Shown: positions 7,316-21,010, numbered from the stretch's first letter. The stretch is 24,000 nucleotides of DNA from Acidianus sp. HS-5 (GCF_021655615.1 NZ_AP025245.1:181132-205131); one strand, 5' to 3'. Made by a program: numbers and translations. Notes: generated by a model from the sequence alone, not told the origin.

Positions 7316-8134
7316 TTACCCTATTACGCTAACGTTTGCTTCTGGTTGATACACGTATTGGCATAGTGTTAATGGAGCACCTATGTTAGGTATTACTTGT
7401 ATTGTAATTGTCTGATATTGGAATACTGGAGTTGATTGAGGGAATAGTATTATAACACCTACCGTAGAACCAGCAGGCGCTACATCGCTACCTACTAGAG
7501 GATCTCCTGCAACTGGGAACGTTATTGCTACAGGTTTACTTGACTTTACATATGCATAGTATTGAGTACCGGAGTAATTGAAAGTGAAATACTGCCCATT
7601 AGTTGGTTTAGTAGTTTCTATACATATATATTTACATCCAGTATTATAATGTAGAGCTAATAATGCTGCATAAGGACTAGAATAATAGTAATATGTTTGA
7701 GATCCTGCTTTTTGACTACATAAATATAAGTGGTCGCTTGTACAATTAAGTAATGTATATGCATATATGTTAGAACATGAAATTCCGCTTGCAGATGCTA
7801 GGAATGATATTGAAGTAGTAGCAGGCGATAAATACACGCTAGATACACCGGCGCTAGGTGATACTGTGAAATATATCCAATAACTAACACTGTCTTTAGG
7901 AAAGTTAGTTGCATATAATATGGAGCTACTTAATTGCAGCGCCGTAGAAGCTGTTTCATCACCCTTATTTATAGTAGTCTTTGCTTTCTGTGTTACGAAT
8001 AGTCCCATGTTTATTGCTACAAACGCCAGTACTGATGCAGTTATTATGAATGCTATTAATATTATTGCAGTATCCAGTCCTGCTAGACCTTTTCTCTTTA
8101 CTAATTTATTATATCTACGTATTATGTTTTTCAT
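7316..8134 (-). CDS. arlB: archaellin ArlB (FlaB)
   Basis: 272 aa. It has a class III signal peptide and the conserved archaellin N-terminus MKNIIRRYNKLVKRKG/LAGLDTAIILIAFIITASVLAFVAINMGLFVTQKA. The C-terminus reads PEANVSVIG. It is the first gene of the cluster. Confidence 0.95.
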   Translation of the reverse strand: MKNIIRRYNKLVKRKGLAGLDTAIILIAFIITASVLAFVAINMGLFVTQKAKTTINKGDETASTALQLSSSILYATNFPKDSVSYWIYFTVSPSAGVSSVYLSPATTSISFLASASGISCSNIYAYTLLNCTSDHLYLCSQKAGSQTYYYYSSPYAALLALHYNTGCKYICIETTKPTNGQYFTFNYSGTQYYAYVKSSKPVAITFPVAGDPLVGSDVAPAGSTVGVIILFPQSTPVFQYQTITIQVIPNIGAPLTLCQYVYQPEANVSVIG

Positions 8135-8150
8135 TTTCTCACTTTTCTAA

Positions 8151-8213
8151 AAGAAAGAGAGAAGTTACATTTTTTAAATATACTGTTTAGTTTCGATTAT
8201 CAGTCTCTTTCTT
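8151..8213. repeat. perfect 10-bp inverted repeat bracketing the arlB core promoter
   Basis: aagaaagaga at 8151-8160 is the exact reverse complement of tctctttctt at 8204-8213, with a 43-bp spacer that contains the TATA box. Confidence 0.7.
8171..8205 (-). promoter_or_regulatory. arlB promoter module: GACTGATAATCGAAACTAAACAGTATATTTAAAAA (read on the minus strand)
   Basis: TATA element TATTTAAAAA (8180..8171) ends 36 nt before the arlB ATG. That leaves a UTR of about 15 nt containing GTGAG. The upstream half, GACT-N4-ATCGAAA, is shared with two other promoters in the window. Confidence 0.6.
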
Positions 8214-8282
8214 ATATTTTTAAGTATTTTTATCTGATATTATATATTTATTGAGCAGAAATTTGCGTGATATCTTTTAGTA

Positions 8283-8317
8283 GACTTACAGTCGAAATTA
8301 AACGGATTATTTAAAAA
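8283..8317 (+). promoter_or_regulatory. promoter module of the divergent operon: GACTTACAGTCGAAATTAAACGGATTATTTAAAAA
   Basis: TATA element TATTTAAAAA (8308-8317) is centred about 26 nt upstream of the ATG at 8339, a leaderless geometry. By my count 28 of 35 positions are identical to the arlB module. Confidence 0.6.
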
Positions 8318-8338
8318 CATTAGCGTAGATGTGAACTT

Positions 8339-8785
8339 ATGTATTTCCTTGGATATGAAATTATTCAATATAATCATACTGCTCTTTACGTATTCTATAT
8401 ATTTACAAATACTAGTATATTTCATGTGATATGGATTAATCCTAATACACATACAATAGTTAATTGTACAGCTTATGTTTCATTATCAGTATTATTTTCA
8501 TATCCTAGAGGAAATTATACTAATTACTCATGTAATGGAATAAATGTATATGCTCTTAAAAACGGAGATCTGATAATAAGCATGAATGGTGTTATTCTGG
8601 AAAGGATGTGCAAAAATGAGATAATAAAATTGAAATACGCTAATTATCCTGGAATAGCTAGTGAAAATTTGCCTAATTTGTCCAAGTTGGCCGGCTATGA
8701 GAACATTTTTTGTATTAGCGCTTACCTTGCGGTGGGGATAATTCTGAGTCTAGTATTTTTCATTATACTGAGGCGATTTCTATGA
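8339..8785 (+). CDS. small membrane-anchored protein (paralog A), function unknown
   Basis: 148 aa. It has a C-terminal TM helix plus a basic tail (IFCISAYLAVGIILSLVFFIILRRFL), several N-x-S/T sequons and 4 Cys. A leaderless-type TATA lies at -26. Its stop overlaps the next start (ATGATGA). Confidence 0.6.
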   Translation: MYFLGYEIIQYNHTALYVFYIFTNTSIFHVIWINPNTHTIVNCTAYVSLSVLFSYPRGNYTNYSCNGINVYALKNGDLIISMNGVILERMCKNEIIKLKYANYPGIASENLPNLSKLAGYENIFCISAYLAVGIILSLVFFIILRRFL

Positions 8786-10227
8786 TGAGAATCAATAACT
8801 ATAGCTGGGTTTCCATATATTTCTCAAGCTTGGCTCTGATAGCCACTTTCGGAGTCAATTTTACATTAGGAAGAATAACTTATACCGGGTATTTCATTAA
8901 TTGTAATTTAGCTAGAATGTTTCTAGTATTTTCCGCAATATTTATGGCTCTAAATTACGGATATTACCTATTTTTAATTCCAATATCTCTTTTATCTTAC
9001 GTTATTCCTCCAGAATTCATAAGTCCTTTGATTTTTCTAATCTCTCTTACAACGCTAAAGAACGCTAGAGGATTAAAAACTATTTTCCTAATAGCCGATT
9101 CTTTAGGGATAACTTATCTTATATTTTATATTTTCCATATTTATGTAAATTACTTGGTATTACCTCTAATATTAATTCAAGACGGCTTTACACCAATTAT
9201 AATTCCGTTAATGTTCTTAGGTATAATATATGGTCTTGGAAGAAAGATAAAATATGATGCGTTAAGAATTCCGTGGTATTTTCCTTTTATTATAGTTTTA
9301 CTTATAGTAATGTTACCACTTACTCCGTTAAACATATTCCATTATCCGGAAACTGTTGACTGGAGGTTTTATTATCAATGGCTAATCAAACCTGAATTAG
9401 GATGGTTCTTTTACTCAAGGCCTTTATATCTTTCTTTATTATTTGCTCTATCCAAACTTGTTAATGCGCTCACGTTATCTCAACTGGAAATGATTCCATT
9501 ATCGATATTATACCTATTTTCAGCATATAATCTAGGAAATTCTTTACAAAAAGGTTTGGGTCCGTTATCCGCACTGATGGCAGCAGTATCCCCTTCATTG
9601 CTCACATTCTTATACTCCGGTTTGGACTCTAATTTATTTTCAATATCACTATTCTTTTTAAGTTTGAGTTATTTGATTAACGGTAAATTAAAGACTTCAA
9701 TAGCTTTATCTTATGTGGCTCTCTTATCTCATGTTTATGCGTGGGCGCAGTTAGAGGGCGGAGTAATACTTTACATAATTGCAGAACGTGTAATATTTCA
9801 CGACGTTAAAAAGACCTATCTGGATTATGTTAAATATACATCTCCAATGTTTGTAATAGGAATAGCTCTAATATTAACTGGAATTTTACCAGTACCATTT
9901 GGTGATTCTTTTAATAACATTTATTCTCAGTTATCAATATTAAGCTGGGGTACTGCTAACGCCTTCCTTTATTATGCTATATCAATTTATGGTCTAGATG
10001 GAACGCATAAGCTAATTTACAGTTTATACGTAACGTCTATACTTGCAATAATTCCGTTATCAGTAGTCCAAAATTTAATAATTGATATCCCGTTTTTCAT
10101 ACCTGCAGCTATAGGTATTTCTAAATTGAAAAATGTTGGAAGGTCTATACTCCTATTTTTTATCATATGGGGATTGTATATGAGTTTGAACAGTTTTCCA
10201 TATATTTACAAGGGTGTTAGCATATGA
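8782..10227 (+). CDS. polytopic integral membrane protein, function unknown
   Basis: 481 aa, hydrophobic over almost the whole length with at least 10 candidate TM segments. It shares ATGA start/stop overlaps with both neighbours. I recognise no catalytic motif. Confidence 0.75.
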   Translation: MMRINNYSWVSIYFSSLALIATFGVNFTLGRITYTGYFINCNLARMFLVFSAIFMALNYGYYLFLIPISLLSYVIPPEFISPLIFLISLTTLKNARGLKTIFLIADSLGITYLIFYIFHIYVNYLVLPLILIQDGFTPIIIPLMFLGIIYGLGRKIKYDALRIPWYFPFIIVLLIVMLPLTPLNIFHYPETVDWRFYYQWLIKPELGWFFYSRPLYLSLLFALSKLVNALTLSQLEMIPLSILYLFSAYNLGNSLQKGLGPLSALMAAVSPSLLTFLYSGLDSNLFSISLFFLSLSYLINGKLKTSIALSYVALLSHVYAWAQLEGGVILYIIAERVIFHDVKKTYLDYVKYTSPMFVIGIALILTGILPVPFGDSFNNIYSQLSILSWGTANAFLYYAISIYGLDGTHKLIYSLYVTSILAIIPLSVVQNLIIDIPFFIPAAIGISKLKNVGRSILLFFIIWGLYMSLNSFPYIYKGVSI

Positions 10228-10784
10228 GGATATTAATAACCGGATTAAAAGGAGGAAGTGGGAAATCGACAATAGCTTACAGTATAATTAAGGACTTCCT
10301 CAAATCTGGGATAGTCCTTGATTTAGATTATACTTTAACGTTGACTAAACTATTGAAGGATGAAAATTTCAAGATACTCTCTATAGGAAATAGTAAAATC
10401 GATAAGAAATACTTTGAGTTTATTTATACTAAATCACTAAGAAATGAGGATAATGTGATAATAGACTCCTCAAATCCTTTCAACGAGATTATTCCATTAG
10501 AAAATAAAGTATATAGTGAGAATAAAAGAGAGTCAATAACTTATGCTCTGTTTGTTACTCCTCCCCTCTTCATGGAGAAAACCTTAGACCTGGCAAAGAC
10601 TTATGATAGGTTTATAACATCTTTATCGCCAACCGAATTAAGAAAAATACTTGTAATAAATTTTGTTAAAGATAACGAAGATATTTCAATAAACGAAATA
10701 AATTATGTGAAAATACCCTTTTTGAGACATTATATGTATAAATATTATATACCTTTAGGTGATCTAAAATGGTTGAATCCATAA
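10224..10784 (+). CDS. short ParA/MinD-family (SIMIBI) P-loop ATPase
   Basis: 186 aa. It has the deviant Walker A MRILITGLKGGSGKST with the signature Lys. It also has VLDLD (Walker A-prime/switch-like) and NVIIDSS (Walker B-like hydrophobic-Asp). Confidence 0.7.
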   Translation: MRILITGLKGGSGKSTIAYSIIKDFLKSGIVLDLDYTLTLTKLLKDENFKILSIGNSKIDKKYFEFIYTKSLRNEDNVIIDSSNPFNEIIPLENKVYSENKRESITYALFVTPPLFMEKTLDLAKTYDRFITSLSPTELRKILVINFVKDNEDISINEINYVKIPFLRHYMYKYYIPLGDLKWLNP

Positions 10785-10969
10785 GAAAAATAAATGATCT
10801 GGAATATGAAATAGATTTCAACAATAGCGTAGTAGTAACTATGAAGATAGAGGAAGAATTTCTTGAGGAAATAGATAAGGCTACGACAGTTCTTGGGTTT
10901 AAGAACAGAAGCGATCTGATAAGAGATGCACTAAAAGAATACTTAAAAAGCCTTAACACAGAATCTTAA
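10769..10969 (+). CDS. ribbon-helix-helix (CopG/Arc/MetJ-type) DNA-binding protein
   Basis: 66 aa. A tail of about 20 aa is followed by VVVTMKIEEEFLEEIDKATTVLGFKNRSDLIRDALKEYL, which fits a beta strand, helix 1, turn and helix 2. The start overlaps the ATPase gene by 16 nt. Confidence 0.7.
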   Translation: MVESIRKINDLEYEIDFNNSVVVTMKIEEEFLEEIDKATTVLGFKNRSDLIRDALKEYLKSLNTES

Positions 10970-11324
10970 TGGCTTCATCAATGCCTTGATATGTATCATA
11001 TATCAGGACTTCATTACCCTTTTTTATTATACAATGTTTACCGTCGACTAAAGCTATATTATTACCAGTTTTAGAAGGGAAAAATCCGAAGATACTTAAA
11101 TCATGAGTATAAACTATTTTATTACATACTTCTTCTCCCTTTTTCTCGTATTTCTCTAGGAATTTGTTAACGTCTTCCTGACTTTTTATCCTTGGCATCT
11201 TAGTTATCATGTAAGTCATCATGATTAAGAGTATTGATGGTAAAAATAAGATGGGCTTAGAAAAATAGTATCCTAACGATGTAGATAATGCCGATAGTGC
11301 AATTGTAATTACTTCTTTCATCAT
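10953..11324 (-). CDS. small membrane protein (two N-terminal TM helices plus a soluble domain), function unknown
   Basis: 123-aa ORF. It is divergent from the arnR-like gene, and its 3' end overlaps the RHH gene 3' end by 17 nt. Confidence 0.5.
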   Translation of the reverse strand: MMKEVITIALSALSTSLGYYFSKPILFLPSILLIMMTYMITKMPRIKSQEDVNKFLEKYEKKGEEVCNKIVYTHDLSIFGFFPSKTGNNIALVDGKHCIIKKGNEVLIYDTYQGIDEAIKILC

Positions 11325-11462
11325 TATTTTCCCCTCATAACTTATATTTATATTTTGATATAATGAATACCCTTAACAAGTAGTTATTTTGTATAAAATA
11401 AAATTATAATCTTACATAAACAGCATAAGGATGATTTTAGCATTGTTTAAAAACCAATATTA

Positions 11463-11470
11463 TTTTTATA
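11463..11470 (+). promoter_or_regulatory. candidate TATA box of the arnR-like gene
   Basis: tttttata is centred about 29 nt upstream of the ATG at 11496, consistent with a leaderless transcript. Confidence 0.4.
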
Positions 11471-11495
11471 CCCGAAAAAGTATAATGTTTTTTAG

Positions 11496-12296
11496 ATGTC
11501 GCTTGTAAATTTCATTAATACACTTAAGGAACTAGACGAAAGTATAGATTTCGCAAAAGGAGTTTATCAATGGAAGATAGTGTTAATACTTTTCATAAAA
11601 GGACCTATGAGTACTTCAGAAATAGCAAAAGAAATTGGAGTTAACAAGAAAAGCGTTATAGATTCAATACGAAAGTTAATAGACAAAGGATTGGTCGAAA
11701 GAGTAAAATATGATATTTATACCTTGTCAGAAAACGGTAAAAAATTAATGGAAAAACTTAGCGGGATTTCAACGCAACAGTTGCAAGTAATCGATTTAGA
11801 TCCTACTGAAGATATATTGAATAATGTAACTCATTACTATTACTTTGTTGAAATAGTAAAGGCATCCACTTTAAATAATTATAAGGTTCCTATCAATTCA
11901 TTGTGTAGAGAATTGGGAGTATCTAAGAGGACATTAATAAATTACCTTGATATATTTTCTACAAAATATAAATATTTCAAGAAAATAACTAAAAAAGGAT
12001 TATTTAGAAATAAAGTAGAATATATGCTCACAGATGAGGGTAAAAAGATTGCATATAAGATTCCTGGAACGTATAAACTGAGACGTAATACATTCTTAAA
12101 GATACTAACCAAGGTTACGCTAAGTAATTCCTTAGAATATTCGATATTTAAGATTCTTGTTTCATTTTCAATTACAGCTCCATTAATATTTATGTTATCA
12201 AAATATCCTGAAGATAAAATAGTTGCGGCAATATGGTTATATTTTCTTGTATTCTTCGGTGTCTCAAGTGTTTTGGCTTATCTATTATCTAAGTGA
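11496..12296 (+). CDS. arnR: membrane-anchored HTH one-component regulator, ArnR-like (archaellum regulatory network activator)
   Basis: 266 aa. The first winged-helix region is MSTSEIAKEIGVNKKSVIDSIRKLIDKGLVERV. A second HTH-like region is INSLCRELGVSKRTLINYLD. There are two C-terminal TM helices (ILVSFSITAPLIFML and IVAAIWLYFLVFFGVSSVLAYLL). This architecture and the location next to the arl operon match ArnR of Sulfolobus acidocaldarius. Confidence 0.65.
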   Translation: MSLVNFINTLKELDESIDFAKGVYQWKIVLILFIKGPMSTSEIAKEIGVNKKSVIDSIRKLIDKGLVERVKYDIYTLSENGKKLMEKLSGISTQQLQVIDLDPTEDILNNVTHYYYFVEIVKASTLNNYKVPINSLCRELGVSKRTLINYLDIFSTKYKYFKKITKKGLFRNKVEYMLTDEGKKIAYKIPGTYKLRRNTFLKILTKVTLSNSLEYSIFKILVSFSITAPLIFMLSKYPEDKIVAAIWLYFLVFFGVSSVLAYLLSK

Positions 12297-12329
12297 CTAC
12301 AAGTCGAAAGTGAAACTCAGATTTAAAAA
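12295..12329 (+). promoter_or_regulatory. third copy of the promoter module: GACTACAAGTCGAAAGTGAAACTCAGATTTAAAAA
   Basis: It has the same GACT-N4-GTCGAAA-N11-ATTTAAAAA spacing as 8283-8317. The TATA centre is about 27 nt upstream of the ATG at 12352. The module begins at the arnR-like stop codon (12294-12296). Confidence 0.55.
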
Positions 12330-12351
12330 GAAGGCTTTAGAAGATGGCAAT

Positions 12352-12843
12352 ATGGATCTGGTAAATCAAACGTTATTTTACACTGTAATGCAAGGTCATA
12401 CCTTGCTCTATTTCCTTCTAATTAAAATAGTAAGTGTTCAAGGAAACAGTGTTTTAGTTAATATCACAAATATTGATACTAATGGTGTTGTATTAAATTA
12501 CACTGCAGCAATGCCCTTGTTTCAAATAATTTGTAATAATTCTAGCGGAAGGCCGATAATGTTTGATGGAGTTAATGCAGAAGCCGTATGTCATAACGAA
12601 ATGAGAATAATTGTTGATACTTATAATCATTTGGTACTATCTTACGTAGAAAATGAAGAGAACTTTACATTAAACGGCAGTACAATACCAATAGCTCCAG
12701 GAAAGATATTGCACATTAACTTACCTTTTTCAAAAAATCATAGTATTATCACTACTTATGAGTATCAAGCTTTAGCCTTGAGTACGGTACTTGTATTCTC
12801 ATTCTATGTAATGTTAAATAGGGTGGAAAAACGAGAAACCTAG
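12352..12843 (+). CDS. small membrane-anchored protein (paralog B of 8339-8785), function unknown
   Basis: The track ORF starts at a TTG (12223) inside the arnR-like gene. The first ATG is 12352, with a TATA at -27, giving 163 aa. It has a C-terminal TM helix plus a charged tail and several sequons. Collinear matches to paralog A are HTxLY, CN and (N/D)GVxxExxCxNE. Confidence 0.55.
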   Translation: MDLVNQTLFYTVMQGHTLLYFLLIKIVSVQGNSVLVNITNIDTNGVVLNYTAAMPLFQIICNNSSGRPIMFDGVNAEAVCHNEMRIIVDTYNHLVLSYVENEENFTLNGSTIPIAPGKILHINLPFSKNHSIITTYEYQALALSTVLVFSFYVMLNRVEKRET

Positions 12844-19081: not shown

Positions 19082-20250
19082 TCAATCTGCACTCCTTTTT
19101 CTCACTTCTTCTGCGATTTCTAACAACTCTTTAGGACCTATACTTAAGTCACTAATTTCTTCAGGTTTTTCCTTTAAACTAACTAGCCCTACTTTTTCCG
19201 CAACCTTACTCATCCTTTTTATAGCCTCCTTAGCTTCTCCTCTGGTTATTTCTCCCATTTTTACCTCAAATGCCCAGATGGGTTTCTTCTTTTTAACTAT
19301 CACCACGTCAATGTCCTCCTTAGGAGAGTAATATAGCACTCCGCCAAAATATTTTGCTAATAACTCACCTACACTAAATTGCACTTCTCTCCCTATAGGC
19401 AACTCGTTTACCTTTACGTCTAGTTCGGAAACTCTATACTTAGCTTCGGCATATAAAGCTAAGGAGAGCTGAGGGGAATAAACCTTATAGTAATTTTCCT
19501 TGGAGAGCGTAGGAATCTTCTGTACAAGTCCCATCTTAACCAGTTTATTAACCATTGAGGAGATTGTCCCTTTCCCTCCTTTAGGTTGTATAATTCCTGT
19601 AATTTCTGAAGTTTTCCAAACGCCCTCTCCTAGAAGGAGTAACGTCTTGTAATATATTTCACTTAACTGCCTTTCTTCCTCTTTAAATACCTCTCCTATT
19701 AGCCCCTTTGAAACTAAGGAAAGTTCTTTTATCTTCCTAACAAAGTCGTTATAACTGTCTATAATAAGGAATTATCCAAGGGTCTCTGTAAAGCACTGAA
19801 AGAAGGGGGTCTCTTAACTGTGAAAGAACGTTCTCATAAGATATTATCCCTATTTCCATGGGCAGAAATAATCCAAGGAGTGGGGGCTATTCCTATCAAA
19901 TACCTTGTTAACTATTCCGTAACTAGAAGCCACAAGTACTAGAGTCCCTTCCCTTTTCCAATTGCTTATTATGCTCCAGTATACCTCGGCAATCTTTGGA
20001 ATTCATCGATTACTGCAGTACCTCCCTTAGACAGAGTTGATTTTACCTCCTTCATAACGTCGTCTATTTTCATTATATTATCGTTAAGGTCTATTGCGTT
20101 GTTAGAGTCAGCTATTAATGCGTAAAAGTCCATTTTTAGGTTGTTTTTTATAAGCGTTGTCTTTCCGGTTTTTCTCCTTCCGTAAACTAAAGTCCAACTG
20201 TTAATGTTCCTTATTTTCTCTTCTTCTCGTCTTCTAAGATATAGTCTCAT
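19082..20250 (-). pseudogene. frameshifted archaeal AAA-type ATPase (Arch_ATPase plus DUF234-like C-terminus)
   Basis: The N-terminal fragment has Walker A GRRKTGKTT and Walker B VIDEFQ (19969-20250). Middle fragments in other frames read SNWKREGTLVLVASSYGIVNKVFDRNSP and PLLGLFLPMEIGIISYENVLSQL. The C-terminal frame reads DSYNDFVRKIKEL...GKGTISSMVNKLVKMGLVQK and runs into the 157-aa ORF. At least three frame changes are present. Confidence 0.7.
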
Positions 20251-20626: not shown

Positions 20627-21010
20627 TTAAGGGAAAGGCTTTTCGGCTTTAATTATAGCGATAAACTTCCTCCTATCCATTCTCTTATCTTCACTTGGAT
20701 TAAATACTATAGCCTGTGATACATTAAGGCTCTTAAGTGTGTTCCTAACTTCATCTAAGGTATCAAATGCTCCTATAAACTGGCCTTTAGCTATAACTAC
20801 GTATTTATTCCAATATTTAGATAAAATCTCTTTCTTCATATTCTCAAAGACACGATTATTAATTTCCCTTTCGTCGTCGTCTCTAGCTTTGTTTAGCCAT
20901 AAATCTATAGCCTGCTCTATTGCTTCTGACAGAGTTAATCCTCTCCTTATTGCCTCAGCCTTAAATTCCCTCAGTTTCTCCTCATTAATCCTCTTTATGA
21001 CTAAAGTCAC
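20627..21010 (-). CDS. RHH-like N-terminal domain fused to a small domain that appears Sulfolobales-typical to me (DUF5678-like)
   Basis: 127 aa. The N-terminus LVIKRINEEKLREFKAEAIRRGLTLSEAIEQAIDLWL has an RHH pattern. The C-terminus WNKYVVIAKGQFIGAFDTLDEVRNTLKSL resembles the short archaeal antitoxin-like domain. Confidence 0.5.
   Translation of the reverse strand: MTLVIKRINEEKLREFKAEAIRRGLTLSEAIEQAIDLWLNKARDDDEREINNRVFENMKKEILSKYWNKYVVIAKGQFIGAFDTLDEVRNTLKSLNVSQAIVFNPSEDKRMDRRKFIAIIKAEKPFP

Follow-up and report, generated by a model that had tools for sequence, protein, structure and literature searches.

The crenarchaeal archaellum is usually described as the product of seven arl genes and the Arn regulatory network, a picture worked out almost entirely in Sulfolobus acidocaldarius. 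In bacteria, flagellar number and placement are set by the ATPase FlhG/FleN, with FleN also antagonizing the activator FleQ, and BcsQ, of the MinD/ParA family, is a subunit of cellulose synthase complexes. In the archaeon Haloferax volcanii, MinD4 positions the archaellum and the chemotaxis arrays (Nussbaum et al. 2020, as cited in PMC12488501). FleN/MinD-like ATPases (arCOG00589) have been recorded near archaeal type IV pilus loci in general, as has arnR in the archaellum loci of Sulfolobales (Makarova et al. 2016). Between flaB and arnR, Sulfolobales fla loci encode a conserved small membrane protein, Saci_1179 of S. acidocaldarius (PMC4307647), which reviews list as a conserved gene of unknown function. 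Here we describe a four-gene operon of open reading frames (ORF1 to ORF4) that diverges from the archaellin gene arlB in a 24,000 nt window of the Acidianus sp. HS-5 chromosome (Sulfolobaceae; NZ_AP025245.1:181132-205131); unless a contig is named, coordinates are those of the whole window.

The operon is a good candidate for an accessory module of the archaeal motility machine. An initial annotation made from the sequence of this stretch had read it as two membrane proteins, a ParA/MinD-superfamily ATPase and a ribbon-helix-helix (RHH) DNA-binding protein, and this composition was borne out by Pfam matches and intact motifs, ORF1 having a single C-terminal membrane helix. Its description as one expression unit also held. 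ORF1 and ORF2 meet at ATGATGA at 8782 (a 4-nt ATGA overlap), ORF2 and ORF3 at ATGA at 10224, and ORF3 and ORF4 overlap by 16 nt (10769-10784), whilst the translational coupling of ORF1 to ORF2, and of ORF2 to the next gene, is kept in Metallosphaera and Saccharolobus. The ratio of non-synonymous to synonymous substitution rates (dN/dS) against two Acidianus-like relatives (L001 and L015) was 0.06-0.15 for each of the four genes (0.13-0.15 for ORF1), and we therefore consider all four to be real genes under purifying selection. Their products belong to known superfamilies; it is the assembly, the tight linkage to arlB and the predicted control by the activator ArnR that are new, and the interest of the feature lies more with its conserved core than with the ATPase/RHH part stressed initially.

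Linkage to arlB was surveyed from both sides. All 11 loci with an ORF2 ortholog and a usable upstream flank carried arlB in divergent orientation, followed by homologs of ORF1 and ORF2; they comprised an Acidianus-like contig, two strains of S. islandicus, two Metallosphaera species, Candidatus (Ca.) Aramenus, a Saccharolobus metagenome-assembled genome (MAG) and two further Sulfolobaceae lineages. No ORF2 ortholog was found away from arlB by the profile search or the locus surveys. A scan of a genome collection with the ORF2 alignment returned six loci, missed known carriers and was not used as a census. From the other side, an archaellin alignment retrieved 34 metagenome loci, among which 17 were Sulfolobaceae-type with at least 1.5 kb of upstream flank; 16 of these 17 carried divergent ORF1, plus ORF2 wherever the contig reached. 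The wider neighbourhood (ORF5r, ArnR and ORF7) was conserved but rearranged.

The remaining two genes of the operon displayed a different distribution. In Acidianus-like and Metallosphaera loci an ATPase gene directly followed ORF2, the two genes overlapping by ATGA, and in L009 the two were adjacent; mutual best matches suggest that these ATPases are orthologous. No ATPase gene followed ORF2 in Saccharolobus, L013-type or L034-type loci. Saccharolobus instead carried three ATPase paralogs at a distance of 4-8 kb, with an ORF4 homolog standing alone, ORF4 homologs being found in the Acidianus-like and Saccharolobus loci, and in Metallosphaera the ATPase gene was followed by an overlapping gene for a 124-aa protein with borderline RHH_3/RHH_1 matches. 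ParA/MinD-type paralogs of 200-276 aa within 10 kb of the archaellum operon numbered five in Metallosphaera and three in Saccharolobus, and the window contained ORF3 only. The exact quartet was restricted to Acidianus-like genomes (the window, L001 and L015). In sum, the conserved core is ORF1 and ORF2, whilst the ATPase and RHH genes vary between lineages. The initial expectation that the operon flanks arlB across relatives was thus upheld for the ORF1-ORF2 pair and not for the full quartet, and the placing of the ATPase and RHH protein at the centre of the module did not survive their absence after ORF2 in Saccharolobus and two other lineages.

The 204 bp between arlB and ORF1 contain a 36-nt inverted repeat (8171-8206 and 8282-8317, 81 % complementary), whose arms, read in gene direction, are AGACTGATAATCGAAACTAAACAGTATATTTAAAAA on the arlB side and AGACTTACAGTCGAAATTAAACGGATTATTTAAAAA on the ORF1 side. 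The 5' part of each arm matches the ArnR box published for the S. acidocaldarius flaB promoter (TCGAC-N5-GTCGA; PMC6396743); upstream of the ORF1 TATA box, TAGAC-TTACA-GTCGA agrees with this consensus at nine of ten positions. The pattern GACNNNNNRTCGAAA (GACN5RTCGAAA) was present three times in the 24-kb window against 0.05 expected, before arlB, ORF1 and ORF7, with each copy about 12 nt upstream of a TATA box. When the 34 metagenome loci (327 kb) were searched, 17 of the 18 matches fell in such promoters. The ATG of ORF1 (8339) is separated by about 27 nt from the centre of the upstream TATA box, and this distance points to leaderless transcripts for ORF1 and ORF7. A bacterial promoter/terminator scan gave 23 features where 22.7 were expected and is uninformative for an archaeon.

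In other genera, too, arlB and the ORF1 homologs are preceded by the box-plus-TATA arrangement. ORF1 homologs have kept the box itself in Acidianus-like, Metallosphaera, L013-type and L034-type loci: in Acidianus-like and Metallosphaera sedula-type loci ORF1 has its own box-plus-TATA copy, spaced as at arlB, and in L013-type and L034-type loci the scored box is on the ORF1 side. In Saccharolobus, one box is common to the divergent arlB/ORF1 pair. The ORF7 arrangement was also found in L001 and L015, and in Metallosphaera yellowstonensis-type loci one ParA paralog carries its own ArnR-box promoter. There, the gene after arnR is a ParA paralog with a like box (L008 18107; L025 720) rather than ORF7, and as this position is held by ORF7 in our window, a box placed immediately behind arnR looks like a conserved design.

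The promoter module shared with arlB and the position of the operon between arlB and an arnR-like activator, both proposed initially, were confirmed. The ArnR ortholog scored 245.7 bits on NF041016, short of the equivalog cut-off of 400 bits, and its gene is syntenic in related loci. Because the ORF1 promoter carries the ArnR-box-plus-TATA module of arlB, ArnR would be expected to switch on archaellin and operon together. The ORF1 operon very probably belongs to the ArnR regulon, judging by these motifs, and its predicted co-regulation by ArnR is well supported by comparative evidence. In S. acidocaldarius, Saci_1179 falls in the same ArnRAB iModulon (independent-component regulon) as Saci_1172-1178 (PMC8578740). 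A separate 13-nt inverted repeat (8148-8160 and 8204-8216; TAAAAGAAAGAGA / TCTCTTTCTTATA; 92 % complementary) brackets the core promoter and leader of arlB, and is possibly a second operator, for example for the RHH protein.

ORF2 is a polytopic membrane protein of about 14 helices. Its AlphaFold2 (AF2) model, built from 14 orthologs, had a predicted local distance difference test (pLDDT) score of 79 and a predicted template-modelling score (pTM) of 0.79. In a Foldseek comparison with solved structures, the sole matches with a probability above 0.8 were STT3, ALG12, ArnT and PglB (0.85-0.99), all glycosyltransferase-C (GT-C) enzymes. A profile search of 1.84 billion representatives returned 108 proteins at E ≤ 0.001; the orthologs among them made up only six full-length clusters at 50 % identity, and the remainder were proteins of 400-650 aa matching profile positions ~165-480. 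Scanning 35 distant homologs revealed sub-threshold matches to PMT_2 in three and to STT3 in one; in one homolog (P0046) the PMT_2 match directly follows the equivalent of the large outward loop. Two distant homologs are located in glycan-synthesis clusters, among GT2, GT4 and Wzx-type flippase genes.

Residues D193 and H317 were invariant across the wide ORF2 family, D193 also in the 35 distant homologs, and E190 and R213 were invariant among orthologs. E190 and D193 lie within the motif PETVDW, in a loop (residues 181-236) that has short helices and for which the positive-inside rule (Lys/Arg distribution) predicts an outward orientation; all four residues are in loops with this predicted orientation. 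The loop carrying E190 and D193 follows helix 7, not helix 1, and its register against known GT-C enzymes is tentative. Compared with the GT-C enzymes (STT3/AglB/PglB, PMT, ArnT and ALG12), ORF2 is likewise polytopic, has its best, though weak, fold matches to them, and carries an invariant acidic residue in a large, predicted outward loop with short juxtamembrane helices, and its distant homologs show weak PMT_2/STT3 matches and glycan-cluster contexts; it differs in having six extra N-terminal helices and no soluble C-terminal domain of the STT3/AglB kind. That ORF2 is a GT-C-like protein acting on the outer face is moderately supported, and it is a putative member of that family.

A related arrangement is listed for Acidianus hospitalis W1, where a pilin gene pair (NC_015518 145104-149748) is flanked by genes for a DUF2029 protein with 13 transmembrane segments and a 12-segment 'predicted mannosyltransferase', as given in the relevant entries of Makarova 2016 Table S4; the same entries show A. 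hospitalis without an archaellum. In Sulfolobales, genes for type IV filaments may repeatedly have polytopic glycosyltransferase-like genes as neighbours.

Alignment of eight homologs placed the C-terminal membrane helix of ORF1 at about residues 121-147 and identified a conserved ANYPG motif; the protein matched nothing in Pfam or NCBIfam. An AF2 model from a two-row alignment of the window paralogs predicted an all-beta domain (N-terminal, beta-rich) at low confidence (pLDDT 52). The second of these paralogs is ORF7, whose homologs adjoin arnR in most related loci and whose start was set, from alignment, at the ATG giving MDLVNQ. Comparison of the ORF1 and ORF7 families with hhalign gave a probability of 97.7 % (E 2e-12). 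Profile-profile comparison linked ORF1/ORF7 to none of ArlF, ArlG, ArlX and ORF5r (probabilities ≤3.1 %). Saci_1179 occupies the same locus position as ORF1 and is co-regulated with the arl genes, as is predicted for ORF1, and it is probably a member of the ORF1/ORF7 family. Its locus differs in that, according to the literature, no ORF2, ATPase or RHH gene lies between flaB and arnR.

ORF3 matched Pfam CbiA/ParA/MinD with 26.8 bits, a marginal pass of the gathering score of 25.4, and its residues 9-16 (KGGSGKST) form a deviant Walker A motif with the signature lysine. In an alignment of ORF3 with 14 relatives from archaellum loci, K9, G10, G11, G13, K14, D33, D81 and N146 were invariant; D33 (VLDLD) corresponds to the Walker A'/switch aspartate, D81 (VIIDSS) to the Walker B aspartate, and N146 lies in VINF. 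All 15 family members matched CbiA at E ≤ 0.01, the best at 1.4e-12. By these motifs, ORF3 is a bona fide minimal P-loop ATPase of the ParA/MinD/FleN/Mrp superfamily. It scored 16.5 bits on NCBIfam ParA_partition (cut-off 180), and its sequence is 100 % identical to that of a protein of Acidianus sp. HS-5 annotated as hypothetical. Searched against the PDB, the family profile matched CFD1 (6.8e-13), FleN (1.5e-12), MinD (5.9e-12 to 1.2e-10), Mrp (5.9e-11), CapB (2.6e-10), Soj (6e-10) and ParF (1.6e-5), with FleN giving one of the longest alignments (positions 4-182). As CFD1/Mrp, FleN, MinD, CapB and Soj match with similar E-values, ORF3 is not assignable to a subfamily.

The MinD/FlhG-like character initially given to ORF3 fared less well, since no C-terminal amphipathic helix of that type was found; the last 11-16 residues contain Pro and Gly and have a hydrophobic moment of 0.19-0.31 in a rough calculation for this single sequence, in which the most amphipathic segment lies in the interior (residues 121-135). 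No MinE, MinC, FlhF, FleQ or CheW-like partner was present among the annotated genes of the window or related loci. A tyrosine cluster like that of BY-kinases (YMYKYY, at the ORF3 C-terminus) was dropped from consideration because it is not conserved outside Acidianus-like sequences. ORF4 matched Pfam RHH_1 over residues 23-60 (32.3 bits, cut-off 20.5) behind an N-terminal tail of 22 residues, and its closest PDB sequences were NikR RHH domains. Orthology of ORF4 to aCcr1 was rejected at 39.1 bits on NCBIfam aCcr1_fam, below the cut-off of 60, leaving it a related RHH protein only.

Compared with the systems introduced above, ORF3 is like FlhG/FleN a deviant-Walker-A P-loop ATPase encoded with motility genes, with FleN among its best solved-structure matches, and like FleN, which acts on FleQ, it is paired with a DNA-binding protein. 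Unlike FlhG/FleN, it is much shorter, has neither a C-terminal amphipathic helix nor FlhF, is coupled to a polytopic membrane protein and is not conserved in every archaellum locus. MinD4 is likewise an archaeal ParA/MinD-family ATPase linked to motility machinery, ORF3 being so by gene position; MinD4, however, is euryarchaeal, is encoded outside the archaellum operon and works in rods, which have poles, and the ORF3-family profile does not discriminate between MinD, Mrp, FleN and CapB. With the type Ib partition pairs ParF-ParG of TP228 and delta-omega of pSM19035, ORF3-ORF4 shares its make-up, a small ATPase of the ParA type whose gene overlaps the following one for a small, N-terminally tailed RHH protein, but it is chromosomal, syntenic across genera, in an operon with membrane proteins and free of centromere-like repeats. 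BcsQ offers the parallel of an ATPase of the ParA/MinD type that is encoded alongside a membrane glycosyltransferase machine and acts on it, and Pfam CBP_BcsQ was weakly matched by 4 of the 15 ORF3-family members; these matches are far below threshold, and BcsQ is bacterial and serves a GT2 enzyme rather than one of GT-C-like class.

Taken together, we read the operon as an archaellum accessory unit co-regulated by ArnR, consisting of an outward-acting glycosyltransferase-like enzyme with an ATPase/RHH regulatory add-on, and we give this reading about an even chance of being correct. Every functional step is one that we infer from the observed operon structure, conservation, synteny, shared motifs and superfamily or fold assignments. 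Upon starvation, the membrane-bound activator ArnR would switch on arlB and the operon together. ORF2 would take a lipid-linked sugar and, working on the outside of the membrane, pass it to archaellin or another envelope component, timed with archaellum assembly, and ORF1, and its paralog ORF7, would be a small membrane-anchored partner or substrate. By analogy with FleN-FleQ and ParF-ParG, ORF3 and ORF4 may form a lineage-variable ATP-dependent switch, rather than a universal positioning device, which would either feed back on the divergent arlB/ORF1 promoters or make the membrane enzyme responsive to a cytoplasmic cue.

Several observations weigh against this reading. The Foldseek scores of ORF2 are weak (E-values 0.06-0.4, TM-scores 0.28-0.43), ORF2 has no Pfam or NCBIfam match and no PDB sequence match even at E ≤ 10, its first outward loop, after helix 1, is without an acidic motif, and no sugar-donor genes lie within the locus. 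ORF1 has no recognizable signal peptide and its model is poor. One clear ArnR box per promoter is seen here, as opposed to the working pair in S. acidocaldarius, both boxes of which are needed for binding in vitro (PMC6396743). The role suggested for ORF3/ORF4 is an analogy only, and the part of these genes in motility is a proposal. S. acidocaldarius swims normally and reportedly has just one small gene, Saci_1179, between flaB and arnR, and deletion of that gene did not deregulate archaella (PMC4307647). In the metagenomic Sulfolobaceae-type locus L016, unrelated genes lie upstream of arlB in place of ORF1 and ORF2, and arnR follows arlJ. Since S. acidocaldarius reportedly has only Saci_1179 at this position and L016 lacks both core genes upstream of arlB, the module is not essential for archaella.

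The weakness of the structural match (TM-score ≤ 0.43), together with the absence of a sequence family at threshold and of donor-synthesis genes in the locus, would also suit a non-enzymatic platform or chaperone for archaellum assembly or S-layer passage, in which ORF2/ORF1 would be only superficially GT-C-like; the tight, conserved link to arlB fits any assembly role. We nevertheless think this quite unlikely, as the invariance of D193 and H317 across distant homologs, and of E190 and R213 in orthologs, is typical of an active site and distant homologs sit in glycan-synthesis clusters. Decidedly improbable is a general envelope or membrane function for genes that are mere neighbours of arlB and share its motif through divergent promoter architecture instead of common control. 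Such a reading would accommodate the Saccharolobus arrangement, where the single box between the divergent genes could serve arlB alone, and the outcome of the Saci_1179 deletion. Against it stand the separate ORF1 box-plus-TATA copy of Acidianus-like and M. sedula-type loci, mirrored at ORF7, the box on the ORF1 side in L013-type and L034-type loci, and the adjacency to arlB of every ORF2 ortholog found.

Two further explanations start from the ATPase. In one, it would position or count archaella together with the RHH and membrane proteins, in the manner of FlhG/FleN or Haloferax MinD4; this we judge unlikely, and such a role for the module is pure analogy. CFD1/Mrp and CapB P-loops match ORF3 about as well as FleN and archaeal MinD, which are among the best PDB profile matches, and the intact Walker A, A' and B residues of ORF3 are offset by its lack of a C-terminal amphipathic membrane-targeting helix and of a MinE, FlhF or CheW-like partner. 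ATPase paralogs do accumulate within 10 kb of archaellum loci (five in Metallosphaera, three in Saccharolobus), one of them in M. yellowstonensis-type loci under its own ArnR-box promoter, and FleN/MinD-like ATPases occur near archaeal type IV pilus loci (Makarova et al. 2016), yet Saccharolobus, L013-type and L034-type loci have no ATPase after ORF2. In the other, ORF3-ORF4 would be what is left of a type Ib partition cassette, from a plasmid or a virus, that had come to rest next to the archaellum genes. Gene order, sizes, overlap and the RHH N-terminal tail do mimic ParF-ParG and delta-omega, and ParF was matched by the ORF3-family profile (1.6e-5). The idea is exceedingly improbable all the same: tblastn with ORF3 found no match in 72,556 plasmid or 50,697 phage records, the region 8100-11520 has no centromere- or iteron-like repeat array (only short two-copy direct repeats, as by chance), there is no integrase and no compositional break at the locus, and ORF3 is translationally coupled to ORF2, has a positional ortholog in Metallosphaera and evolves under purifying selection. 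The preferred reading, of an ArnR-co-regulated enzyme with a regulatory add-on, also has a bolder form, which we regard as distinctly doubtful: ORF2 would found a new GT-C-type branch as a dedicated, ArnR-co-regulated archaellin or envelope enzyme, and the ParA-like ATPases with their RHH partners would be the crenarchaeal counterpart of FlhG/FleN, physically coupled to ORF2 and setting archaellum number or place in a coccoid cell that has no poles.

The positions of the features discussed are collected in Table 1. Downstream of arlB, we identified ArlX (PF24151, 227.8 bits), and ArlG, ArlF, ArlH, ArlI and ArlJ were mapped by tblastn to related loci. ORF5r had no Pfam or NCBIfam family match; its homologs were found in Acidianus-like, Metallosphaera, Saccharolobus, L009, L013-type and L034-type loci, and the Saccharolobus homolog directly follows ORF2 on the same strand. 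A PADLOC defence-system check gave no match for six proteins of the locus.

Table 1. Position of the operon, its neighbours and predicted promoter modules in the window, and of ParA paralog clusters in related contigs
Feature	Coordinates	Strand	Description
arlB (archaellin)	7316-8134	-	Pfam Arch_flagellin, 68.4 bits; first gene of arlBXGFHIJ; divergent from ORF1
arlB promoter module	8171-8206	-	ArnR-box-like site 8191-8205 (GACTGATAATCGAAA) and TATA box (TATATTTAAAAA), ~36 nt before the arlB ATG
ORF1 operon promoter module	8282-8317	+	ArnR-box-like site 8283-8297 (GACTTACAGTCGAAA) and TATA box (TTATTTAAAAA)
ORF1	8339-8785	+	148 aa
ORF2	8782-10227	+	481 aa
ORF3	10224-10784	+	186 aa
ORF4	10769-10969	+	66 aa
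ORF5r	10953-11324	-	123-aa membrane protein; convergent with ORF4, 3' ends overlapping by 17 nt; outside the operon
ArnR ortholog	11496-12296	+	Membrane-bound helix-turn-helix archaellum activator; NF041016 trans_reg_ArnR, full length
Third ArnR-box-like site	12295-12309	+	GACTACAAGTCGAAA; overlaps the arnR stop codon; TATA box ~12321-12330; module 12295-12330 is the predicted ORF7 promoter
ORF7	12352-12843	+	163 aa; C-terminal membrane helix; invariant N-x-T sequons; ORF1 paralog
ParA paralog clusters	L004/L005 12972-18457; L008 13581-20761; L002/L003 15118-18973; L027 425-4282; L029 1135-5161

Some irregular gene structures were seen in the related loci. In MAG contigs of Ca. Aramenus sulfurataquae, the ORF3-type ATPase gene after ORF2 is reduced to its first 25 codons (L006 1617-1691; L007 10052-10126), and arnR is apparently broken into several frames (L007 10311-10925); the cause is either degeneration of the locus in its regulatory part or a poor assembly. 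In five metagenome contigs arlB is divided between two ORFs that differ in frame (L034 9436-10316; L035 5057-5937; L036 5038-5918; L037 204-993; L040 354-1242). The break point differs between lineages and the split recurs in contigs from several samples; it is probably a sequencing error. Two peat-soil contigs, L038 (1-3685) and L033, encode a Sulfolobales-type arlB of 52-58 % identity, in one case with arlX. The 3.1 kb upstream of arlB in L038 carry CBS-domain-like and unrelated genes and no ORF1, ORF2 or arnR, and these contigs appear to represent a non-Sulfolobaceae lineage with a related archaellum. Elsewhere in the window, two separate minus-strand ORFs encode the N-terminus of an AAA_14 ATPase and a weak DUF4143 match (19082-19555 and 19969-20250); by its appearance, this pair (19082-20250) is probably a split, pseudogenized archaeal ATPase gene. 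The minus-strand gene at 20627-21010 encodes an RHH/ParG-like protein with a DUF5678 match.

A literature search, which reached few subscription papers, retrieved no description of these genes, and nothing on the ORF2 family, the relationship of ORF1 to ORF7, the cluster of ATPases by Sulfolobaceae archaellum loci or an ArnR box before these genes. The tags of neighbouring S. solfataricus genes gave no literature matches, and neither a 2021 history of archaellation nor a 2026 census of archaeal type IV filament systems mentions these genes. The initial proposal of an undescribed archaellum-associated module is therefore retained for the linkage to arlB, the ArnR-box match and this lack of a description, and revised in its content, as it had not recognized that the core is a GT-C-like protein with a small partner.

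These results indicate that, outside S. acidocaldarius, most Sulfolobaceae sampled carry a conserved and probably ArnR-controlled gene set beside arlB. They point to missing parts of the archaellum picture, namely a candidate surface-modification enzyme, the ORF1/ORF7 family and locally expanded ParA-type ATPases with RHH partners. The genes adjoining ArnR (SiRe_RS00635) in S. islandicus REY15A are genetically tractable targets, and the operon would extend the ArnR regulon in a way that is open to test. Should archaellum number or placement prove to be controlled by the ATPases, Thermoproteota would have their first system of this kind, and if ORF2 does glycosylate archaellin, it would represent a new glycosyltransferase family.

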